Counted from the first letter of the stretch, positions 1,983 to 16,145 are shown. The stretch: 16,145 nt of DNA from Pseudomonadota bacterium (GCA_043767805.1 JAYUGC010000044.1:1-16145); one strand, 5' to 3'. Program-made: numbers and translations. Notes: a model not told the origin generated them from the letters alone.

Positions 1983-3512
1983 TTACTCCGGGAGGCAGGC
2001 GGAAAGCACCGCATACTTGAACGCCTCCTCACCTTCCACGATCACCTGATAGGGGTAATCCGTGGGCGGGCTCTTAACCTCAAAGCCCCGCGCGGAAAGA
2101 AAGCGGGCCAGGGACTCCAGCTCGAACTTGATGATGGAATAGAGCAGGATGCGCTCGCCTTTCGGAATCACCTGCTTGCCGTCCCAGGTGGTGAGCCGGT
2201 GTTTCAGCGTGTAATAGAAGCGGTACACCTGGCCGCGGATGCCTTGGGGGCTCGAGTAATCTTGCGCCGGGATGATGCTCTTGAACTCTTCGGCTTCGGC
2301 GTCGTAGAGAAACTCGCGATTCTTCTCGAGCGGAATGGGATTACCTTCGTCGTCCGTGGAAATGAGAAGCTCCAAGTCGTGCAAAAGATGCCGGGGAGTT
2401 TCCAGCGTGAACGGATCGAGCGTGTACTTTTCTTCGATGGGCGCGCCGTCTTCCTTGGGGCCTTTTCTCCGAAGTACCGAAGCGCCTACCAGGAAAGCGA
2501 GCGGTCTCGCGGTGCTGAAAGCTTCCTTCACGGAAACGAAGAAATCCCATTCGTGGTTCTCGTAATTGCCGATGCAATTGCCGAGAAACGTACAGACGGT
2601 GGGCGCGGGCTTGAAGAAGCCTTCTCCCATTTTCATTCTCGCCTGAGGCAGAATGGATTTCAGACGATAGAGATCGCCAATCACGGGGCAATACTTGAGA
2701 CGTCCCGTGCGCAGATCATCGGGAAAGCGTTCCTGAATGAGCTTCGAGTGGCTCATGAGGAGAATGTCGCTCGAATCGATGGCGAGGTACTCGATCTGCA
2801 AATTGCCTTTGCGCTTGAGTAAGCGTCTCAGAATTTCCGATTCGCCGAGACCTTCGCCGGGGGCGAGGGAAACGAGACAGATGCGGCCTTCGGTGGCGGC
2901 TTCGAAAAGCGTTTCCGGAATGCCATACGCGTCCATGGCTTCCGCTTCATAAATCTTTTTGTCGGCAGCGGTCTTGGTGGAAAAGCTGAGCCACCAGGCG
3001 GCCGCACGGTAGGTGCTATAGAGGCAAGCGAAGGGAAGGCCGCCGCCATCACGGACCAATTCGCGGGCAATGGCGCGCGGATCTTGAAGTCCCGCGCTTT
3101 CTTCGGCCACTCCCACGAGTCTTCCACCGACACTTGCTAACGGCTCGGCGGAGCCATCCGTATCCACTAATTCCATCTTCGACTCGCGGCCGACTTTGAG
3201 CGTCTTCAGCCGGAAGCGGACTTCGCTGCGGGGCAGCGTTTTGGAGAGCTCAGAGAGCGCTACCCGGAGCGTCGGAACCGGTAGAATGCCTCCGCCTTTG
3301 GTGGCTTTCTGAGGGGAGCGCACGGCTTTGCGCTTACGGATGATCTCGTTTATATCCCCATAACTAGCTGGATTTCCTCTTAAATCGAGGAGGGCTAGAA
3401 AGACCACTGAGCGGACCGTGGCGTTGTCGAGTTTCAGGGTATCGCGGAAGTCGAGAGCGCGGTCGCCCAGCCACTTCTGATATGCCGCCCCATCTATGGA
3501 CCACGTTTCCAA
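1983..3512 (-). CDS. Putative N-terminal winged-helix DNA-binding domain fused to an EgtD/EasF-like (Methyltransf_33) SAM-dependent methyltransferase domain
   Basis: C-terminal motifs are collinear with the EgtD family: LPFACLY (cf. LPPKYFY), LVSLAPGEG (cf. LIELGSG), YLAIDSS (cf. YVPIDIS), VIGDL, FLGNCIGNY (cf. FLGSTIGNF), FLVG. The N-terminal ~120 aa has a wHTH-like pattern (VFLALLDLRGNPASYGDINEII...TLRVALSELSKTL followed by a beta wing). TTG start preceded by an AAGGAAGG SD. Confidence 0.7.
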   Translation of the reverse strand: METWSIDGAAYQKWLGDRALDFRDTLKLDNATVRSVVFLALLDLRGNPASYGDINEIIRKRKAVRSPQKATKGGGILPVPTLRVALSELSKTLPRSEVRFRLKTLKVGRESKMELVDTDGSAEPLASVGGRLVGVAEESAGLQDPRAIARELVRDGGGLPFACLYSTYRAAAWWLSFSTKTAADKKIYEAEAMDAYGIPETLFEAATEGRICLVSLAPGEGLGESEILRRLLKRKGNLQIEYLAIDSSDILLMSHSKLIQERFPDDLRTGRLKYCPVIGDLYRLKSILPQARMKMGEGFFKPAPTVCTFLGNCIGNYENHEWDFFVSVKEAFSTARPLAFLVGASVLRRKGPKEDGAPIEEKYTLDPFTLETPRHLLHDLELLISTDDEGNPIPLEKNREFLYDAEAEEFKSIIPAQDYSSPQGIRGQVYRFYYTLKHRLTTWDGKQVIPKGERILLYSIIKFELESLARFLSARGFEVKSPPTDYPYQVIVEGEEAFKYAVLSACLPE

Positions 3513-3621
3513 AGTCTCTAGCCTTCCTTAAAACCACGCCGCCGCGGGCGCGTCTTCTTTATACCTGGCTTTGCCCGGGGTTACCAGGCACGAGGATACA
3601 TATATTCCGTATTTATTCATA

Positions 3622-3637
3622 TTGCATATGTATGCAA
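3622..3637. promoter_or_regulatory. Palindromic operator candidate TTGCATA-TG-TATGCAA in the divergent promoter region
   Basis: Perfect 7-bp inverted repeat with a 2-nt spacer inside an AT-rich island between the divergent genes. GCATATGT is present at 3624-3631 and again at 3682-3689. Confidence 0.55.
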
Positions 3638-3734
3638 CGTTTGTTATCTCTAAAGCAACTGATATGAAAGTCGGGCCGAGAGCATATGTCGGTTTTGGAA
3701 TTCTTCAACGGGACGAAACGCAAGGGGACGCAAC

Positions 3735-3758
3735 ATGAACGATCAGAGCTGGAACTAG
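3735..3758 (+). CDS. mccA: Microcin C-like precursor heptapeptide MNDQSWN
   Basis: ATG AAC GAT CAG AGC TGG AAC TAG with SD AAGGGGA at 3722-3728. It is 7 aa with a C-terminal Asn, like E. coli MccA (MRTGNAN), and lies 23 nt upstream of the mccB-like start. Confidence 0.88.
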   Translation: MNDQSWN

Positions 3759-3781
3759 AGAACGCCCAGTCCGGAGAGAGT

Positions 3782-4852
3782 GTGACGCCGTCCCCACGCA
3801 CGGGGCAATGGATCCTTTCTCCCTATGTCCGAGCCGGCCTGGATGGCGGCATCCTTTTCCTCGGGTTCGGCTCCCTGCAAAAGCAGGTGACCGATAGGCG
3901 GCGCCAGGAGCTGCTCCTCTCCACCTCGCACTTCTGGATGATTCCCTCGACCGTGAATGAGGCGCATGACTATCTCGTGAAACGTGCCGGCGCTTCCGAA
4001 GCTGAGGCCAAAGAGACCATCGATTTTCTTTTGCTGAACCGTTACCTCATTCGGCCCGACGCTTTTAAGTCGACCGATCGGTATGGGCGGCATGCTTTGT
4101 TCTACGCGCTTGCCGGTGCGGATCCTCAAATCGTTCAGGGAAAACTCGCGGCGAGCCACGTGGTCGTTCTTGGATGCGGCGGCATAGGCAATCAGATCGC
4201 CTGTGCCCTTGCCGCGGCGGGCGTGGGTAAGCTCACTCTCATCGATGAGGAGCCAGTCGAGATTTCTACGCTTACCCGACAGTTCGTTTTCGCGGAGAGC
4301 GATCTGGGACAGCCGCGCACGGAAACTTTGCGCCGTGAGCTCTCGCGCAGGGCTTCACAGACGGTGGTCGACATCGTGGACACACCGCTTCGAAAAGACG
4401 AGGACTTCGCGAGTATCCCCGACTGCGATTTGATTGTGGTCTCGGCGGATTCGGGTGGGCTCATGCCGCGTTTGAACGCGCACGCCGTCCGCCGCAAGAT
4501 TGCGTACGTGGATGTGGGCTTCGTGCAGGATGTGGCGGTGTGGGGACCGTTTGTGATTCCCGGCCGTACGGGCTGTCACGCTTGTCATTCGCTCGTTGCG
4601 ACGGAGCCCAAGCCCGGTGATTTGGCGTGGAGCCTCATCCGAGAGATCAACGGCCGCTACCAAGCGCCCGCGTTCGGCGCGGTGAACATGGCGTCCGCCT
4701 CTCATGCTTCGCTTGATTGTCTTCGTTACTTGGGAGGCTTCGGCCAAATCCAATCGCTCAACCAGCGCGTCGGCATCTGGACCCACGACCTGCACATCGA
4801 AACCCAGCCATGTCCCCGCAACCCAGCCTGCTCCGTCTGCTCGTTATCTTAA
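3782..4852 (+). CDS. mccB: MccB-like ThiF/E1-family peptide nucleotidyltransferase (microcin C synthetase homolog)
   Basis: Collinear with E. coli MccB along its whole length: WILSPYVR (cf. YILGRYVK), RYGRHALFY..GADPQIVQGKL, VVVLGCGGIGN, LTRQ, VVSAD, GFVQDVAVWGPFVIPGRTGCHAC, PAFGAVN, SLNQRVGIW, RNPACSVC. Both Zn-binding CxxC motifs are kept. The GTG at 3782 with GGAG SD (3773-3776) gives 356 aa, close to MccB size; the ORF-track start at 3686 would overlap mccA. Confidence 0.9.
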   Translation: MTPSPRTGQWILSPYVRAGLDGGILFLGFGSLQKQVTDRRRQELLLSTSHFWMIPSTVNEAHDYLVKRAGASEAEAKETIDFLLLNRYLIRPDAFKSTDRYGRHALFYALAGADPQIVQGKLAASHVVVLGCGGIGNQIACALAAAGVGKLTLIDEEPVEISTLTRQFVFAESDLGQPRTETLRRELSRRASQTVVDIVDTPLRKDEDFASIPDCDLIVVSADSGGLMPRLNAHAVRRKIAYVDVGFVQDVAVWGPFVIPGRTGCHACHSLVATEPKPGDLAWSLIREINGRYQAPAFGAVNMASASHASLDCLRYLGGFGQIQSLNQRVGIWTHDLHIETQPCPRNPACSVCSLS

Positions 4853-4876
4853 AAGTACTAACTATCTTTTAAGAGA

Positions 4877-6325
4877 CTAGTCGAGGGAGATCCAGACCGA
4901 CTTTACTTGCGTGTAGAGCTCGATCGCGTACTTGCCGAGCTCGCGGCCAAAGCCGCTTTGCTTGAAGCCGCCGAAGGGCGAGGCCGCATCGAAGCAGTTA
5001 AAGCAGTTCACCCAAACGGTGCCGGCTTTGACTTGCTTCGCGAGACGGTGCGCTTTGCCGATGTCGCGCGTCCAGATGCCGGCCGAGAGACCGAACATCG
5101 TGTCGTTGGCCTGACGGACGAGATCTTCGTGGCTCTTGAACGAAATCGCAGACACCACGGGTCCGAAAATTTCTTCGCGGGCAATCGTCATGTCGTTGGT
5201 GACGCCTTCGAACACCGTGGGTTTCAAGAAGTAACCCTTCTCACGAGCCTTCATGCCGCCAGTGACGACTTTCGCGCCTTCCGCTTTGCCTTTTTCGATG
5301 TACCCCAAGATCTTATGGAACTGCTCGGAGGACACCTGCGCGCCCATGCGCGTCTTCGGGTCCATCGGATCGCCGACGACGATCTTTTCCGCGTTGGTTT
5401 TCAGTTTCGCGAGGAACTCGTCGTGCGCGCTTTCTTCGATGAAGAGACGCGAGCCGGCGCAGCAAACTTCGCCTTGGTTGAAGAAGATACCTCGCATGGC
5501 GCCCTGTACGGCCGCATCGAGATCGGCATCGGCGAATACGATGTTCGGGGCTTTACCGCCAAGTTCCAAAGACACACGTTTGAGAGAGAGAGACGCGAGA
5601 CGCATCACTTCTTTGCCGACTTCGGTCGAGCCGGTGAAGGCGACCTTGTCGACTTCGGGATGAGTCGCGAGCGCGGCGCCCGCCGTGGGACCAAAACCGG
5701 GAACGACGTTCAGCACCCCGGGAGGAAGGCCGGCTTCCTGAAAGAGCTCAGCCAGGCGCAAAGCAGAGAGAGGCGTTTGTTCAGCCGGCTTCAAGACGAC
5801 CGTGCAACCGGTCGCAATCGCAGGTCCTAGCTTCCACGCCGCCATGAGGAGCGGGAAGTTCCAGGGAATGATTTGGCCGACCACGCCCGCGGGTTCCCGC
5901 AACGTGTAGTTAAAAAAGTTTCCGTTCACGGGGATGGTGTCGCCGTGAATCTTGTCGGCAAGGCCCGCGTAGTACTCGAAGGTCTCGATGGCGAGCGGGA
6001 GATCCGCGTTCATCGTCTCGTAGATGGGCTTACCGTTATTTAAGGTCTCGAGCTCGGCAAACTCCGTTTTGTGTTTTTCGAGAAGAGCGGCAACGCGGTT
6101 CAGGATGCGGCCGCGCTCGCGGGCAGACATTTTCGGCCAGGCGCCCGACTCGAAAGCGCGGCGGGCGGAGCGGGCGGCGAGGTCGATATCGGCTTTGTCG
6201 CCTTCGGCGCACGTGGCCAGGACGGTTTCCGTCGCGGGGTTGAAAACCTCGAAGGTTTTGCCGCTGCGCGCGTCGCACCATTCGCCATTGATGAAAAGCT
6301 TACCATTCTTAACTTCCTGCGCCAT
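4877..6325 (-). CDS. NAD(P)-dependent aldehyde dehydrogenase
   Basis: Motifs [32 protein letters not shown], catalytic Cys in [19 protein letters not shown] and [13 protein letters not shown]. Confidence 0.97.
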
Positions 6326-6339
6326 TGTCTCGACCCCCT

Positions 6340-6466
6340 GCCTGTTAACATTAATGGAGAAGGCCCAAGAGCCTTACCGGCTGGGCTTCTCCGACATTCA
6401 TTCGAATCGTCCTAACTTAGTGATCTCAGGGAAACCCCGTCAATAGCGGCTTTTGGCCTGTTAACA
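6340..6466. promoter_or_regulatory. Divergent promoter region with two GCCTGTTAACA boxes, a stem-loop and a candidate sigma70 promoter for the ALDH gene
   Basis: GCCTGTTAACA occurs at 6340-6350 and 6456-6466 (core palindrome TGTTAACA). Hairpin GGAGAAGGCCC...GGGCTTCTCC at 6356-6392. On the minus strand, TTGACG (6443-6438)-18 nt-TAAGTT. Confidence 0.45.
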
Positions 6467-6566
6467 AGCATTAACGGAAGGCGCGTGCCATTCGATCCCA
6501 CTTGAATCGAAGTAGGTAATCTTGGATATATACCCCCGCTTTTGCCAATCCTCTTTGGAGCCCCTC

Positions 6567-7091
6567 ATGAAAGCTAAATCCCTGCTTTTTTTGACGGTTA
6601 TTGCTGTGCTCGTTGGAAGTTGCGGGCTCAACCCGTTTCCGCCCGTCTCCGGCCCGGGCAATCCGATCACGGGGGGCCAGAAGGCCAAGCTAGTCGTCTT
6701 TGGGGGGGAATGGTGCGGTCAGTGCAAGGGGGACTTACCCTTTTTGCAAAGCTCCCTTCGGCAGCGGCTGGGCGCGGCGGCTAACGATGTTTCGGTGGAG
6801 CTTTGGGTGTCCACGGGCAAGACCCCGAGCGCTCCTCCCTACGTGGGTGGCCCCGAGTACTACCGCGATTTGCTGAAGTTAAATGCGAAGGCCGTCATGG
6901 ATGGCGAGCCCAACAAAAAGCCGGTTCGCTGGCCTAAATTCGTCGAGCTTTTTCCGAACGTCCGCAGAGAGCTTCCCGCCGCTGTCCTTTTTAGGGCGGA
7001 CGGGACCATCTACAAAAAGTTTCCGCCCGGACAAGACACGTTCAATCCCGCAGATATTGTTGCAACCGTCGCCGAAGTTCTGAATAAATAG
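6567..7091 (+). CDS. Thioredoxin-fold lipoprotein (WCGQC)
   Basis: ATG at 6567 with a GGAG SD. Signal peptide and lipobox MKAKSLLFLTVIAVLVGS-C, active site FGGEWCGQC, and a cis-Pro-like ELPAAVLF motif. Confidence 0.8.
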   Translation: MKAKSLLFLTVIAVLVGSCGLNPFPPVSGPGNPITGGQKAKLVVFGGEWCGQCKGDLPFLQSSLRQRLGAAANDVSVELWVSTGKTPSAPPYVGGPEYYRDLLKLNAKAVMDGEPNKKPVRWPKFVELFPNVRRELPAAVLFRADGTIYKKFPPGQDTFNPADIVATVAEVLNK

Positions 7092-7100
7092 GAGTTACCC

Positions 7101-7598
7101 ATGTTTCGTCCTTGGATAATTCTAGGCTCATTACTGTGCTCGTTCGCGTTCGGTAAAACAGCTCCGCTGTTTCATGCGGAGGCTTTGGGCGGCAAGAACG
7201 TATCGCTCGCGGAAACACTGAAGCCCAATCGCGGTGTACTCATTTGCTTCTGGGCCAGCTGGTGCACGCCGTGTATCGAGGAATTGAAGCATGTGGGGGA
7301 GTACGTGAAGGCGCACCCTGAGTTCCCGCTCGATGTGGTGACGGTGAACGTCGACACTTCGGAGACTTCCTCGGATGTCGCGCCCACGGTAAAGCTCTAC
7401 GGAATCAACTTTCCCGTGGTGCTCGATCCGAATCACGAGATCTTCGCCAAGTATCAGTCCGCGAAACAGCTTCCCTTTTCGGTTCTAGTGAATGGCCAAG
7501 GGCAAATGGAAAAAACCTTTCAAGGGTATCAGCCTGACCTTTTCACGCAGATTGACGTTGCACTAAAGGGGAACTCGGATGCAAGCCAGAAGAACTAG
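7101..7598 (+). CDS. TlpA/ResA-family thiol-disulfide oxidoreductase
   Basis: Signal peptide, FWASWCTPCIEEL, VVTVNVD, FPVVLD and LPFSVLVN motifs; AGGAG SD. Confidence 0.92.
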   Translation: MFRPWIILGSLLCSFAFGKTAPLFHAEALGGKNVSLAETLKPNRGVLICFWASWCTPCIEELKHVGEYVKAHPEFPLDVVTVNVDTSETSSDVAPTVKLYGINFPVVLDPNHEIFAKYQSAKQLPFSVLVNGQGQMEKTFQGYQPDLFTQIDVALKGNSDASQKN

Positions 7599-9063
7599 CA
7601 TTCTGTTTTGCGCTCTGATGTCGTTTTCCGCTCACGGCGCCGTCCTGGAAGGCCCGGCCTCGGAAGCGACGGTGGCCATCGCCGGTCACACGCTCGTTTT
7701 TAGCCGCCACGATCAACAAGACGTCACCGCCCCTCACCAAGATCTCATGTTGCACGAGACGACGGTGAGAACGGGGTACCGTCAGTATGGGCTTGGCGTC
7801 GAGTTCACGAGCCAGCTGCCTTTCTCGACGCAATCGGGAAACAACAAGCCTTTCACTTTAGAGAAGAAATACCTCACCGCCGATTGGGACAAGTGGAAGC
7901 TCGACCTCGGCGATAGTCACCTGGAGCTGGGTAAGGGTCTTGCGCTGTCTCTGTATCGCGACCCGGTCTTCGGCATCGACAATACTTTAGAAGGCGCTTC
8001 GGCTCGCTACTCTTCGAACGGCATGAAAGCCGGGCTTTTCGCGGGCCGCTTGAACGCGCTTCGTGTCCCGGTGGCTTTGAATCCCGTCGGCTACCCGATT
8101 CTCAATCGCCAGGTCTTCCTCGGTGGCGGCGACATCAAGGGCAAAGTGCTGCCCTCAATGACCGTGGGCGGACACTATCTTTTCGCCGCGAATCGTCCCG
8201 ATAACGGGCCGGGCGTCGATCGACGCTGGCATACGGTGGGCGCCTCGGTTTCCCGCGAAGGCGCGAATGACGGCGTCGATGCTTATCTCGAGAGCAATGT
8301 GCTTCTCACCCAGCGTGTCGGCACCGTCCGCAACGAGAGCCTGCCGAACGGTTTTGGAACGTATGCGTCTTTGAGCTACGTGCCGGCTCCGTGGAAGTTT
8401 CGGATCGAAGGTAAGGATTATCGCGATTACCGCTTCGAGTTCCGCCGCCCCCCGACTTTGGAAGAAGATATCGTCCAGACCATCAACACCCAAGACGTCT
8501 CGGCGGCGAAGATGTCAGCGGAGTATCGTTTTCTCGAAGCACGGGCTTTCACGCGGGCGTCTTATTTGTTCGGCGAAGATCGCGTGAAAAAGAGCCCCAT
8601 CCACCACACCGTTTTGTCGGGTGGGTTTAAGGGCCCCGGAAAAACTTCTTGGGAGATGAACGCTGGTTATCGCTACATGCCTCAAGTGGCCGATCTCACG
8701 CACGCCGGTATCAAGTCGAAGGTGCCCACCTTTGAAGGGCAAAGTATGGAAGTGGGCTTGCGCCGGGTATTCAACCGTACCGTTGTCGGCCAGAGCGTCA
8801 CGCGCGACGATAAGAACATCCTCGACCTGACTTACAATTTCTCGGCGAAGTTCAATCTCGGCGCGGGTGTCGAGTTCGTACCCACCAATACCGAAGAGGT
8901 AGGCAAGCGCTTCTTGAGTGCCTCCGCGACGGTGAAGCTAGGCGCTTTCCTCGCCAAAGCCTTCGTCGGTACGACGAGTGGCGGCACACTCTGCTCGGGC
9001 GGCGTTTGTCGTCAGGTGCTCCCGTTCTCGGGTGGCGCGCTCGAGTCCACTTACTCCTTCTAG
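7579..9063 (+). CDS. DUF6029-like outer-membrane beta-barrel protein
   Basis: Signal peptide, amphipathic beta strands and C-terminal Phe (STYSF). Contains LGKGLALSLYRDPVFGIDNTLEG and a C-terminal GGTLCSGGVCRQV motif that I recall as typical of DUF6029, which usually sits beside a TlpA gene. Confidence 0.75.
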   Translation: MQARRTSILFCALMSFSAHGAVLEGPASEATVAIAGHTLVFSRHDQQDVTAPHQDLMLHETTVRTGYRQYGLGVEFTSQLPFSTQSGNNKPFTLEKKYLTADWDKWKLDLGDSHLELGKGLALSLYRDPVFGIDNTLEGASARYSSNGMKAGLFAGRLNALRVPVALNPVGYPILNRQVFLGGGDIKGKVLPSMTVGGHYLFAANRPDNGPGVDRRWHTVGASVSREGANDGVDAYLESNVLLTQRVGTVRNESLPNGFGTYASLSYVPAPWKFRIEGKDYRDYRFEFRRPPTLEEDIVQTINTQDVSAAKMSAEYRFLEARAFTRASYLFGEDRVKKSPIHHTVLSGGFKGPGKTSWEMNAGYRYMPQVADLTHAGIKSKVPTFEGQSMEVGLRRVFNRTVVGQSVTRDDKNILDLTYNFSAKFNLGAGVEFVPTNTEEVGKRFLSASATVKLGAFLAKAFVGTTSGGTLCSGGVCRQVLPFSGGALESTYSF

Positions 9064-9085: not shown

Positions 9086-9577
9086 ATGAGCCGCTATTTT
9101 TTGCTTTTTTTCCTTTCGTTTCCAGCCTTCGGGGCGGACGTCTCCACGTTAAAAACCAACGGTGATTTGGACGCCGCCGTGAAATATTGCGTTAAGAATT
9201 TTCCCAAGGGAGCGACTTCCTCGCAGGAGGGTTTCGAGGAGTGCGTTCGCTCGGCACTGGCGACGTATTTCAATGCCGTGGTGAAGCTCACCTGGGCGAC
9301 TGATCCTAAGACGCCGCTCGTAGCGGCGGCCGCCGCGCCCACCAATACGCCGGTGCCCACGCCCGCGATCGATCGCGCGAAGGAAGAAGCGCGCGCCAAG
9401 GAACAATTTAAGATCCTCGTGAAGTCGGTCACGTGTCAGCGTTGTCACGTCGGTCTAAATGCCTCGCAGTATACGCTCTCGCAAATGCACGCGGTGCTGA
9501 CTACGCCGTCGCATCAGGAACATTTGGGCCCCAAGGATCAAGAGCTCATTAGAAAGCTTGGGACGATGGTCCAGTGA
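9086..9577 (+). CDS. Secreted protein with a single heme c-binding motif (putative c-type cytochrome)
   Basis: Signal peptide ending PAFG-A, CQRCH motif, downstream Met/His candidate ligands, and a Pro/Ala-rich linker. Confidence 0.6.
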   Translation: MSRYFLLFFLSFPAFGADVSTLKTNGDLDAAVKYCVKNFPKGATSSQEGFEECVRSALATYFNAVVKLTWATDPKTPLVAAAAAPTNTPVPTPAIDRAKEEARAKEQFKILVKSVTCQRCHVGLNASQYTLSQMHAVLTTPSHQEHLGPKDQELIRKLGTMVQ

Positions 9578-10026
9578 TGATGACTTATTCCGTTCGGCGG
9601 GCGACTCGGGACGACAAGGAGGCGTGGGTCGGTTTGCGCTCGTGCCTTTGGCCGGACGCTCCTGCCGCCGATCACGCGGCGGATGGAGAGACGATTTGGG
9701 AAAAGTATCTTGAAGCGGCGGTCTTTCTCGCGCTCGACCAGACCGGAAAAGCGGTGGGTTTCGCGGAAGTGTTTTTGCGCGGCTTTGCGAGCGGCTGCGA
9801 CACGAGTCCGGTCGTGTTTTTAGAGGGCATCTGGGTGAACCCCGTCGCGCGCGGAAAAGGCGCCGGCCGAAAGCTCGTCGAAGCGTGCGCGGGGTGGGGG
9901 CGCGAAGTCGGCTGCAAAGAGCTCGGCTCCGGCGCGCTCCTCGACAACAAAGCGAGCCACGTCGCTCACAAAGCCTGGGGCTTTGAGGAGACCGAGCGAG
10001 TGATCTACTACCGAATGAAGCTTTAG
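9574..10026 (+). CDS. GNAT acetyltransferase, AAC(6')-Ic/Iy-like family
   Basis: Motifs WVGLRSCLWP, GFAEV.LR...GCDTSPVVFLEGIWV.P.ARGKG.GRKL, GCKELGS.ALLDN.ASH..HKAWGFEETERVIYY. Translationally coupled to the upstream gene (GTGA overlap). Confidence 0.88.
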   Translation: MMMTYSVRRATRDDKEAWVGLRSCLWPDAPAADHAADGETIWEKYLEAAVFLALDQTGKAVGFAEVFLRGFASGCDTSPVVFLEGIWVNPVARGKGAGRKLVEACAGWGREVGCKELGSGALLDNKASHVAHKAWGFEETERVIYYRMKL

Positions 10027-13925: not shown

Positions 13926-15248
13926 CTAAGATCGCGTTTTCACTAATCTTAAAAAATTTGGATCAGAGCTTGGGGGACATTGGGGGACAGGCGCACTGCG
14001 TTCCTGTCCAAAATTCCCCGCAACGCTGTCCCCCGGGGGGACAGCATCCAACGCATTTTTCGTGAGCACCCCATTGAGGGCGTCCGCGATTTTGTGCTTC
14101 GATGCGTTTGTCTGAGTGACGTATCTCAGCGTTACATTCGGTGAAGAATGATCGAGGTGTTTCGAGACTGCGTAAAAATCGCCCGTCGCCTCGTTGGCCA
14201 GAGTTGCCGAGGTTTTCCTCAGCATATGGGTTCCACGAACATTCTTGATGCCCAATCTCTCCAGCGCCCGGTTGTAGGCTTTCGCCACCGTTTGCCGATT
14301 CATGGGCTTTCCGTTGTTGTGGAAAACAAAGGGCACATTGGGGTTTCGGATCTTTTCGAGTCTCTTCAACTCCTCTACCAAGAGTTGCGGCATCACTAGC
14401 ACCCGAACTTTCCCATTCTTTGGTCTCTCCTTCACCCGGGGTTCCCAGGTGATTTGATCCCAATCAATGGTGCGTTCGATACGAATGATCCGATTCTTCA
14501 GATCCAGAGCCTCCCAGGTCATCCCCGCCAATTCTCCAATTCTTAACCCCAAACAAAACTGTGCTAGGGCCATCGAAGAGAAGATCGGGCTTTTTGACTT
14601 CTTGAGATCCTGCAAGAACAGCGACAACTCTTCTTGGCTCAAGCTCTGAACGGGAGCTTGTGCCTTTTTAGCGATGTCCGCTGCCCTATAGTGTTCATCA
14701 AGAATCGGGATGAGGTAACTTGGGTCGATCCGCTTCCGGTAGAAATTGAGGATCACTTTGAGAAGGTTCAGTTCCTTTTCAAAGGTGTGCCTCGGTCCCC
14801 CTTTCGGGTAACTCTTCACCCAAAACGAGATCAACGCATCAATGAGTGAAGTGTCGATCTCCTCAACTTTAGTACGCGTCAAGAAATCCAGATTTGGAAG
14901 TCGCTTTTCGTATGTCTGTTGAGTGCTTCGTTCGAGTTGCAGAAAGTGGAATGGTTTCCACCGTTCGACAAGCTCTCCGAAAGTTAGCCGTCCATCACTG
15001 CGATGGATCATGTTCCGGGGAGCGTTGTTACCTATTGGGGCCTTTTCAATTTCACCTTGGCGAAATCGAAGCGCATCTTCGAGACTATCGAAAACGGCTT
15101 GCTCCTTTCGGGAGATTCCGTTTTCGACAATTCGCCTCATGGCTCTGTACTTACCCGTTTCTCTCCATTTTTTTGTTTGGCCATCAAACTCCAGTCTTTT
15201 GGAAATTCCTGGATAGTTTCTGACCGGCTGTTCTTTACGTGTGATCAT
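13926..15248 (-). CDS. int: Tyrosine recombinase / phage-type integrase
   Basis: Complete catalytic set: GLRIGE (R), PKNG (K), HMLRK (HxxR), HLDHSS (H), TLRY (Y). N-terminal arm-binding-like and core-binding regions are present. Confidence 0.95.
   Translation of the reverse strand: MITRKEQPVRNYPGISKRLEFDGQTKKWRETGKYRAMRRIVENGISRKEQAVFDSLEDALRFRQGEIEKAPIGNNAPRNMIHRSDGRLTFGELVERWKPFHFLQLERSTQQTYEKRLPNLDFLTRTKVEEIDTSLIDALISFWVKSYPKGGPRHTFEKELNLLKVILNFYRKRIDPSYLIPILDEHYRAADIAKKAQAPVQSLSQEELSLFLQDLKKSKSPIFSSMALAQFCLGLRIGELAGMTWEALDLKNRIIRIERTIDWDQITWEPRVKERPKNGKVRVLVMPQLLVEELKRLEKIRNPNVPFVFHNNGKPMNRQTVAKAYNRALERLGIKNVRGTHMLRKTSATLANEATGDFYAVSKHLDHSSPNVTLRYVTQTNASKHKIADALNGVLTKNALDAVPPGDSVAGNFGQERSAPVPQCPPSSDPNFLRLVKTRS
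13970..14045. repeat. Four GGGGGACA boxes (candidate integrase arm-type sites)
   Basis: Tandem TTGGGGGACA at 13970-13979 and 13980-13989, plus the inverted pair GCTGTCCCCC-G-GGGGGACAGC at 14025-14045. Confidence 0.65.
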
Positions 15249-15496
15249 CTAGTGCCTCCTTTTTGGAGCCACTCAGCGATCTTCACTGGTGAGAAACGAA
15301 CCGATCGCCCTACTTTGGAGTAGGGGATCTTGTTGCCCGACATTAGCTTGTAGACGTGGCGAACGGAGACGGAAAGTTCCCGCGCCACATCGTCCACCGA
15401 CCATACCAACTTTTCAAAGACCGGAGCCCGAGGATTCAAGGGCTTATCGATAGAAGAGATACTACATATAGGGATGACATTTGGCAATTTATTCAT
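15245..15496 (-). CDS. xis: Excisionase-family helix-turn-helix protein
   Basis: WSVDDVARELSVSVRHVYKLMSGNKIPYSKVGRSVRFSPVKIAEWL fits the HTH_17/MerR-like Xis pattern. It overlaps the int start by 4 nt. Confidence 0.88.
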   Translation of the reverse strand: MNKLPNVIPICSISSIDKPLNPRAPVFEKLVWSVDDVARELSVSVRHVYKLMSGNKIPYSKVGRSVRFSPVKIAEWLQKGGTR

Positions 15497-15570
15497 GGCG
15501 TTAATCCGGCGGTAAGTGTTTGATTTCAGGCGGGAAATTTCCGAAGAAAAACTTAATAAATTCTGCTATT

Positions 15571-15590
15571 ATAGTATCATCTGATACTAT
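15571..15590. promoter_or_regulatory. 20-bp palindrome ATAGTATCA-TC-TGATACTAT (operator candidate)
   Basis: Perfect 9-bp arms in the AT-rich xis/fic divergent spacer, 6 nt before the fic ATG, overlapping -10-like TATTAT/TATAGT hexamers. Confidence 0.65.
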
Positions 15591-15596
15591 CAATTT

Positions 15597-16145
15597 ATGT
15601 CGAATAAACCGATCTTCTCGATAACGTCCAACATGCTCCTTCGGTGCACCGAGATCACCCAATTGCTAGGTCGTTACGAAGGGCTGATGAGTCCCCGCCC
15701 CCAGCCTTTGCTGCGTCGGCAAAATCGAATCCGCACCATCCGGGACAGTCTGGCGATTGAGGGAAACCGGCTTACGCTCGACCAAGTGAGCGCCATTTTC
15801 GATGGAAAAAAAGTCTTAGGCCCGTTGAGAGAGATCCTGGAAGTCACGAACGCGATCAAAGTCTACGAGAAAGCTCCCTTCTTTGATCCTTCGTCGTCCA
15901 AGGCCCTGCGAAAGGCGCACGGGATTTTGATGAAGGGGCTCGTCGAAGACGCAGGGCAATGGCGGGCAACCGATGTCGGAATTTTGAAGGGCTCGAAAGT
16001 GTCCCACCTTGCTCCCCCCGCAAGACTCGTGGCGGGACTCATGGAAGATCTTTTTCTGTATCTGAAGAACGAGAAGGCTATTCACGCGCTCATCAAGTCC
16101 AGCATCTTTCACTACGAGCTTGAGTTCATCCATCCGTTTTCGGAC
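15597..16145 (+). CDS. Fic-family protein (AMPylase), 3'-truncated by window edge; absent from the ORF track
   Basis: Manual translation is open for 183 codons: MSNKPIFSITSNMLLRCTEITQLLGRYEG...RIRTIRDSLAIEGNRLTLDQV...AGQWR...HYELEFIHPFSD. It ends at the start of the Fic motif HPFxDGNGR and includes the inhibitory motif SLAIEGN. Confidence 0.93.
   Translation, partial: MSNKPIFSITSNMLLRCTEITQLLGRYEGLMSPRPQPLLRRQNRIRTIRDSLAIEGNRLTLDQVSAIFDGKKVLGPLREILEVTNAIKVYEKAPFFDPSSSKALRKAHGILMKGLVEDAGQWRATDVGILKGSKVSHLAPPARLVAGLMEDLFLYLKNEKAIHALIKSSIFHYELEFIHPFSD

Follow-up and report, generated by a model that had tools for sequence, protein, structure and literature searches.

A very probable seven-codon mccA gene, probably nested within mccB, in a Pseudobdellovibrionaceae-type metagenome-assembled genome

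What does the seven-codon open reading frame (ORF) ahead of the conserved part of an mccB gene encode, and where, relative to it, does the gene for the MccB enzyme begin? Both questions are raised by a contig of 16,145 bases that was analysed over its whole length (hereafter the window) and belongs to a Pseudomonadota metagenome-assembled genome (MAG) of 4.52 Mb in 204 contigs (GCA_043767805.1, JAYUGC010000044.1). An initial annotation had proposed a hidden gene for the heptapeptide MNDQSWN behind the Shine-Dalgarno (SD) motif AAGGGGA, in a frame other than that of mccB. The window reads exactly so, with ATG AAC GAT CAG AGC TGG AAC TAG running from the ATG at 3735 to the TAG at 3756–3758, in the +1 frame relative to a long ORF of 388 aa (3686–4852). 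According to two studies of the microcin C family (PMC6495379, PMC4010828), MccB needs Asn at the C terminus of its substrate, precursors keep a length of seven residues and a strong SD is typical. By sequence and conservation, we consider the micro-ORF very probably a genuine mccA. The reading that we favour, with moderate confidence, is that this mccA feeds the adjacent MccB, that it is nested in a genuine mccB frame starting at ATG 3686 (with GTG 3782 perhaps used as well), and that the two genes form a bare mccA–mccB pair.

A conserved heptapeptide gene beside a full-length MccB

On sequence comparison, the 388-aa ORF is a full-length MccB homolog. A phmmer search against the PDB returned MccB (3h5n, 6om4) with E=1.7e-63 and 218 bits, aligning residues 42–386 to residues 3–347 of the 348-aa MccB chain, N-terminal peptide clamp included; MoeB, ThiF and E1 enzymes in the PDB reached ~1e-16 or weaker, and PaaA gave a partial match over residues 125–216 (E=1.3e-10). 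The product carries a Pfam ThiF domain (3.7e-34), and the AlphaFold2 model of the 388-aa form (66 homologs) has a mean predicted local distance difference test (pLDDT) score of 90.5, exceeding 95 from residue 41, near which the folded MccB core starts (base 3806). Invariant in the 66 homologs are the GCGGIG loop (G163, G165, G168) and the cysteines C297, C300, C382 and C385, which we take to be the metal site, as in MccB structure papers. The ortholog set consists of the window itself (protein P0001), the DNA and protein of an uncultured Pseudobdellovibrionaceae MAG that genome search places in the same genus as the window's genome (L001, protein P0003), and a third member available as protein alone (P0002, 77% identity). 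Across these three lineages mccB is intact at 73–77% identity, with every invariant residue kept.

The micro-ORF lies 51–74 bases 5′ of the first conserved MccB residue, and bases 3734–3757 are identical between the window and L001, where the stop codon is TAA instead of TAG. Over the mccB core the same two loci share 69.9% nucleotide identity, falling to 47.8% at third positions, and the longest run of identical codons within the 347 codons of that core is five. The conserved stretch matches the SD, ATG, five codons, Asn and stop exactly. In L001 the AAGGGG is displaced by one base via substitutions, with the length unchanged, and within the window the gene at 7579–9063 is preceded by the identical motif, AAGGGGA, at equal distance. 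P0002 retains the overlap-frame residues HERSELEL, and the residues flanking them on either side differ. No other seven-codon ATG…Asn-stop ORF occurs on either strand of the window, for which 200 mononucleotide shuffles give a mean chance expectation of 0.315 per whole window.

The initial annotation had named orthologous loci without an Asn-ending micro-ORF as a test of its claim; L001, the single orthologous DNA locus, carries an identical one (1/1). It had also anticipated that automated annotation would swallow the gene, and the public protein collection does hold a 388-aa call (P0001) spanning the micro-ORF, a further demonstration that gene callers miss seven-codon mccA genes. The encoded MNDQSWN is acidic, lacks a basic residue and carries Trp at position 6. 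From this composition a special uptake route had been proposed, a suggestion that must be put more weakly than it was, because acidic heptapeptides without a basic residue are already published, MNDDGNN and MDTVTTN among them (Table S1 of Zukher et al. 2019, PMC6495379). None of the 7–8-mers in that table contains Trp, and neither MNDQSWN nor Bdellovibrio-type organisms are listed in it.

Asn-ending precursors across related mccB loci

To place the micro-ORF within its family, we surveyed 42 related mccB loci, 37 of which include the mccB 5′ end and were scanned for upstream ORFs. An Asn-ending heptapeptide ORF was present in 35 of the 42. In fourteen of the 37 scanned loci, the strand of mccB carries a seven-codon ATG…Asn-stop ORF preceded by an SD, no more than 400 bases upstream (for example MDDEASN, MNTDTSN, MNTISKN and MNGFSSN), and a further 21 loci, all actinobacterial, encode, downstream of mccB and on the other strand, peptides of the form M/VN[DG]DG[NSD]N that reproduce entries in Table S1 by Zukher et al. 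(2019; PMC6495379). The other seven comprise five truncated loci (L026, L032, L039, L040 and L042), L035 with a 47-codon ORF, and L037 with no pattern match. Taken with the PDB match and the identity among orthologs, these co-occurrences agree with the original proposal of an MccA-type precursor beside a true MccB, and on sequence grounds the enzyme, the precursor form and the conservation place the locus in the microcin C-like family.

The survey also yielded observations on individual loci. In Nocardiopsis, Thermobifida and Murinocardiopsis (among L003–L028, L038 and L041), the heptapeptide gene (MNDDGNN type) lies ~0.6 kb 3′ of mccB; in most of the 21 actinobacterial loci a GC-rich hairpin follows it, and the two genes converge as separate transcription units. 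The 47-codon ORF of L035, a Bdellovibrionales MAG whose MccB is 34% identical, lies upstream at ~5815–5958, starts with MNFAASN, has Asn as its last residue and may encode a precursor of the long type. In L029 (Parachlamydiaceae HS-T3) the mccB region (6094–7146 overall) is split into two consecutive ORFs, 6094–6735 and 6748–7146, a sign that this copy may carry a frameshift or stop.

Where mccB starts

The initial annotation regarded the 388-aa call as over-extended and placed the MccB start at a GTG behind a second SD, GGAG. Both elements are present and in frame with the long ORF (GGAG 3773–3776, GTG 3782–3784), and a start there would give a product of 356 aa. As a statement about the clade, over-extension is not supported, on the evidence of two of the three orthologs. 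L001 has no in-frame ATG, GTG, TTG, CTG or ATN from the mccA stop to the conserved Trp, and the mccA-to-core linker of P0002 contains no Met, Val, Leu or Ile. Because the linker offers no start-capable codon, MccB of L001/P0003 and of P0002 must start upstream of mccA; and because MccB can there be made solely from the upstream ATG, mccA would be nested in mccB in these two orthologs. All three have the upstream ATG and the open frame, and their linkers, of 17 (P0001), 16 (P0002) and 18 (P0003) residues, differ by whole codons. The 25 bases that begin with ATG 3686 are identical in L001, an identical-codon run longer than any within the mccB core. In both this block (3686–3710) and that over the micro-ORF (3734–3757), every synonymous site is unchanged between the window and L001, a degree of conservation that, by this comparison, exceeds the needs of single-frame coding. 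The comparisons indicate that codons 17–25 of mccB probably contain mccA in the +1 frame. We consider translation of the long mccB frame likely in the clade; use of ATG 3686 in the window's own strain is only slightly favoured.

Several observations weigh against the favoured reading, concerning the start of mccB here and the content of the operon below. ATG 3686 has no SD, although most genes of the window have one, and GTG 3782 has GGAG five bases before it (at −9). The N-terminal extension is predicted to be disordered, docks nowhere and has no predicted fold, with pLDDT at 42–49 for residues 1–30 of the 388-aa form and given in the same range for residues 1–38. In all 13 outgroup loci with an upstream mccA, the canonical mccB start lies 3′ of mccA, 3–21 bases ahead of the first conserved strand (126 in L025), and E. 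coli MccB has just two residues ahead of the aligned position. It is also not rare for a frame of ~32 codons to stay open by chance. The observations on SD motifs, disorder, outgroup starts and E. coli MccB suit an alternative in which mccA is real and the long ORF an artefact of annotation, with MccB made from GTG 3782 only and 3686–3781 forming an untranslated leader that is open in frame by chance. We regard it as possible but doubtful: L001 and P0002 leave no start for MccB other than 5′ of mccA, the window shares the same ATG and its identical bases, the linker changes length by whole codons, and the GGAG-N5-GTG pair (3773–3784) is specific to the window and missing from L001. The proposed GTG start is plausible for the window's strain, where it may be an extra or alternative start, and is unsupported across the clade.

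The basis for conservation is itself small: a single DNA locus from an ortholog (L001), plus two orthologs at the protein level. P0002 and P0003 resemble sisters, so that few lineages are independent and the loss of a proximal start in the two may be a single event. The sequencing runs containing the window sequence are DNA, from sediment metagenomes; runs X1, X4 and X5, aligned over 3686–3810, provided no variant information, and one X5 contig stops at the ATG. Searches of metagenome contigs for relatives returned just a C-terminal fragment of 60% identity (L043), and a search for shorter N-terminal protein fragments of MccB found none.

Two further features were seen around the candidate starts. 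The residues encoded at 3686–3709, MSVLEFFN, begin with Met, end in Asn and have the length of the rarer, eight-residue type of MccA, with no stop codon following, and are base-identical in L001; they could be the relic of a second precursor fused through stop loss, or a coincidence. In the local minimum free energy (MFE) structure, GGAGAGAG (3773–3780), which contains the SD of GTG 3782, pairs with CTTTCTCC (3816–3823) inside mccB, a pairing specific to the window and not found in L001.

A bare pair with no exporter or immunity genes found in the operon

In mcc clusters, exporter roles are assigned to MFS proteins and immunity roles to GNAT and HIT proteins in PMC4010828 and PMC7157772. An MFS_1 ORF lies 3′ of mccB on the same strand in 13/13 outgroup loci (11 above the Pfam cut-off, with L020 and L033 below it), and after mccB an Acetyltransf_3 GNAT gene is also present in six of the 13 and a HIT gene in three; by analogy, these would be the counterparts of MccC and of MccE-like or MccH-like immunity. 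Continuing the points that weigh against our reading, no mccC-, D-, E- or F-type gene was found in the window operon, and neither in the window nor in L001 is mccB followed by a gene for an MFS exporter, a GNAT or a HIT protein. A search of the window's own genome with one MccC homolog (from L034) also found nothing, a search run without a positive control. No self-immunity gene (GNAT, MccF peptidase or HIT) is adjacent to mccB, the rest of the genome not having been searched for these families. A stem of at least 8 bp directly 3′ of the mccA stop, present in 9/13 outgroup loci and resembling the E. coli terminator (PMC4231749), was found in neither the window nor L001. On sequence, the window operon departs from the minimal mccABC set in having no exporter or immunity gene within it, and it also lacks a post-mccA hairpin, the hairpin between mccA and mccB being a feature of many microcin C members and no strict definition.

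With no exporter or immunity genes found in the operon, the module could be cryptic. In the corresponding alternative, mccA–mccB is what remains, cryptic or in decay, of a larger mcc operon and makes no exported antibiotic, with mccA still a gene by descent. The regular presence of MFS_1, GNAT and HIT genes in the outgroup and the occurrence of MccB in just 2/34 family genomes, both of one genus, speak for it. We nevertheless judge it unlikely, as mccB is intact in three lineages with its invariant residues kept, mccA and its SD are preserved, an MFS-fold protein is divergently transcribed from a conserved common intergenic block, and immunity could come from general GNAT or HIT enzymes encoded elsewhere. 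For the bare pair as we read it, the question becomes whether the compound acts inside the cell, leaves via an MFS pump that was co-opted, or is never produced.

RNA, promoter and terminator signals

RNA-level explanations were explored for the two invariant blocks. The pairing of one block with the other proposed by RNAalifold is not supported: covariation is absent, the z-scores of the single sequences are 0.44 and 0.07, the helix is also missing from the L001 MFE structure, and shuffled sequences fold equally well. Rfam gave no match on 3300–5000 at E<=1. That the micro-ORF is no gene at all, its conservation reflecting MccB N-terminal coding (HERSELEL) or an RNA element, is very improbable: the micro-ORF does sit inside a conserved open frame and all its synonymous sites are kept, beyond the needs of peptide coding, but the MccB-frame residues flanking HERSELEL vary freely within an extension predicted to be disordered, the conserved stretch runs precisely from SD to stop with TAG to TAA still a stop, 35/42 related loci carry the same kind of ORF, and an RNA element finds no support in folding or Rfam.

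A simple sigma-70 consensus scan found no promoter-like site, and a terminator-like site at 3841–3854 was discarded, not being conserved in L001. The divergent intergenic region upstream of mccB contains an AT-rich block of 34 bases (3606–3639) that is well conserved in L001 and has an inverted repeat, TTGCATA (3622–3628) and TATGCAA (3631–3637), imperfect in L001. From its sequence it is a candidate promoter or operator common to both divergent units.

Proposed mechanism and relation to known systems

Our analyses covered sequence, conservation, MccB homology and fold, and family co-occurrence; what we say of translation in the two frames, and of the chemistry, nucleotide and target, is inferred. 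By analogy with known systems, formyl-MNDQSWN would be the substrate and would bind the MccB clamp. By homology to E. coli MccB, the enzyme would use two nucleoside triphosphates, activating the C-terminal Asn, which would cyclise to a succinimide and be attacked again, and the product would be a peptidyl-(iso)asparaginyl nucleotide with an N–P bond. The nucleotide is most likely AMP, this MccB being in the heptapeptide-associated group; the cytidylating enzymes in the literature come from the long-precursor clade. Once taken up by a target cell and processed by peptidases, the compound, a peptide-nucleotide 'Trojan horse' antibiotic, would yield a non-hydrolysable aspartyl-adenylate analogue blocking aspartyl-tRNA synthetase.

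The probable overlapping-frame layout, although unproven, is the most interesting aspect of the locus. A tentative extension of the favoured reading, which we hold as speculative, is that the strong-SD start of mccA and the SD-less upstream start of mccB compete, setting a large substrate-to-enzyme ratio, with the two invariant blocks belonging to a switch, at RNA or ribosome level, by which both genes are coupled. If the genes are nested, this would offer an alternative to the ribosome-controlled terminator of E. coli for setting the MccA:MccB ratio, and a compact example of a substrate and its enzyme in two overlapping frames. It would then be the first precursor gene of a ribosomally made, post-translationally modified peptide (RiPP) nested out of frame within the gene of its own modifying enzyme. 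We found no such RiPP case in the literature consulted, which included passages of PMC6495379, PMC4010828, PMC12250964, PMC4231749 and PMC7157772, and no account there of an mccA that overlaps mccB.

Comparison with characterised members of the family shows what is shared and what differs. As in E. coli microcin C7 (mccABCDEF, MRTGNAN, 3H5N/6OM4), a seven-codon Asn-ending gene with a strong SD stands directly upstream of the conserved part of MccB on the same strand, and the window MccB has the peptide clamp, Gly-rich loop and four-Cys site. Unlike the window's mccA, which sits within the extended mccB frame, that of E. coli is separated from mccB by an intergenic terminator hairpin (PMC4231749); the window also lacks mccC, D, E and F, its peptide differs in being acidic with Trp at position 6, and the similarity between the two MccB proteins is modest. 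The MccB of the Nocardiopsis, Thermobifida and Murinocardiopsis clusters (MNDDGNN, MNGDGSN; PMC6495379) is 44–49% identical, among the closer relatives outside the clade, and their peptides share with MNDQSWN an M-N-D/G start, an acidic character and the lack of a basic residue. In contrast to the window, these clusters have mccA downstream on the opposite strand with a GC-rich hairpin, and their hosts are Actinomycetota rather than a Pseudobdellovibrionaceae-type MAG.

A seven-codon Asn-ending ORF followed by mccB is also the arrangement of the minimal mccABC clusters (H. pylori, S. thermophilus, L. johnsonii and Bartonella; Bantysh et al. 2014, PMC4010828) and of the Chlamydiae, Oligoflexales and Planctomycetota loci of our survey. 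In both sets an MFS exporter and often GNAT or HIT genes follow, whereas the window operon ends after mccB. PaaA of pantocin A resembles MccB in being ThiF/E1-like, in having a peptide-binding domain at its N terminus and in acting on a small ribosomal peptide, but acts within a 30-residue precursor (PMC4010828), whereas here the terminal Asn of a heptapeptide would be modified. The locus would thus add a Bdellovibrionota-type lineage and a new peptide, MNDQSWN, to the microcin C family, the sole Trp-containing heptamer relative to the 2019 table.

Neighbouring genes

Table 1. Features of the mccA–mccB region and its upstream neighbours (positions in the window)
Feature	Position	Strand	Evidence or remark
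MFS-fold membrane protein, 367 aa	870–1973	−	AlphaFold2 model and Foldseek
509-aa protein, Methyltransf_33 (EgtD-like S-adenosylmethionine methyltransferase)	1983–3512	−	Pfam 4.3e-08
AT-rich 34-base block, divergent intergenic region	3606–3639	.	32/34 bases identical to L001; flanks diverge
mccB long frame, 388 aa	3686–4852	+	PDB MccB, Pfam ThiF, AlphaFold2
Upstream ATG of mccB and next 22 bases (MSVLEFFN and G)	3686–3710	+	Identical in L001
SD AAGGGGA of mccA	3722–3728	+	Six-base spacer to ATG; AAGGGG kept in L001
mccA, seven codons (MNDQSWN) and TAG; very probable	3735–3758	+	Sequence, conservation, uniqueness in window
Variable linker, mccA to MccB core	3759–3808	+	In frame with 3686; contains GGAG and GTG

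Divergent from mccB are the genes for a 509-aa and a 367-aa protein (Table 1), neither of which had a PDB match by sequence. The 367-aa protein also found nothing in Pfam at a relaxed threshold, and its MFS assignment derives from the AlphaFold2 model (pLDDT 84.4), Foldseek, whose listed PDB hits were all MFS/SLC-type transporters (TM score 0.55–0.70), and the ESM Atlas; it is not similar to the one MccC homolog compared with it (E=1.6). Homologs of the 509-aa gene occur in seven other genomes of the family (L047–L053), each beside a homolog of the membrane protein (that of G008 being cut at a contig end). In the five genomes outside the window's genus with full-length 509-aa homologs, only weak ThiF/MoeB-type matches were found, and no MccB. 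Because the pair occurs without MccB in these family relatives, it is not mcc-specific, and a role for the two genes in mcc tailoring or export is weakened. By this distribution the 509-aa gene is probably outside the mcc module, mccA–mccB looks like a two-gene acquisition set beside the pair, and the 367-aa protein, given its modelled MFS fold, could serve as an exporter through co-option only.

Downstream, the end of mccB lies 24 bases from a convergent aldehyde dehydrogenase gene, and at the boundary with that gene L001 has two unrelated genes inserted. A GNAT gene at 9574–10026, 4.7 kb from mccB, scores 135.3 bits against the NCBIfam model for AAC(6′) group E (cut-off 140 bits). Towards the end of the window lie a tyrosine recombinase (13926–15248, minus strand) and a Fic-domain gene from 15597, in a region (13926–16145) with a GC content of 0.49 compared with ~0.57, which may be the edge of an integrated element.

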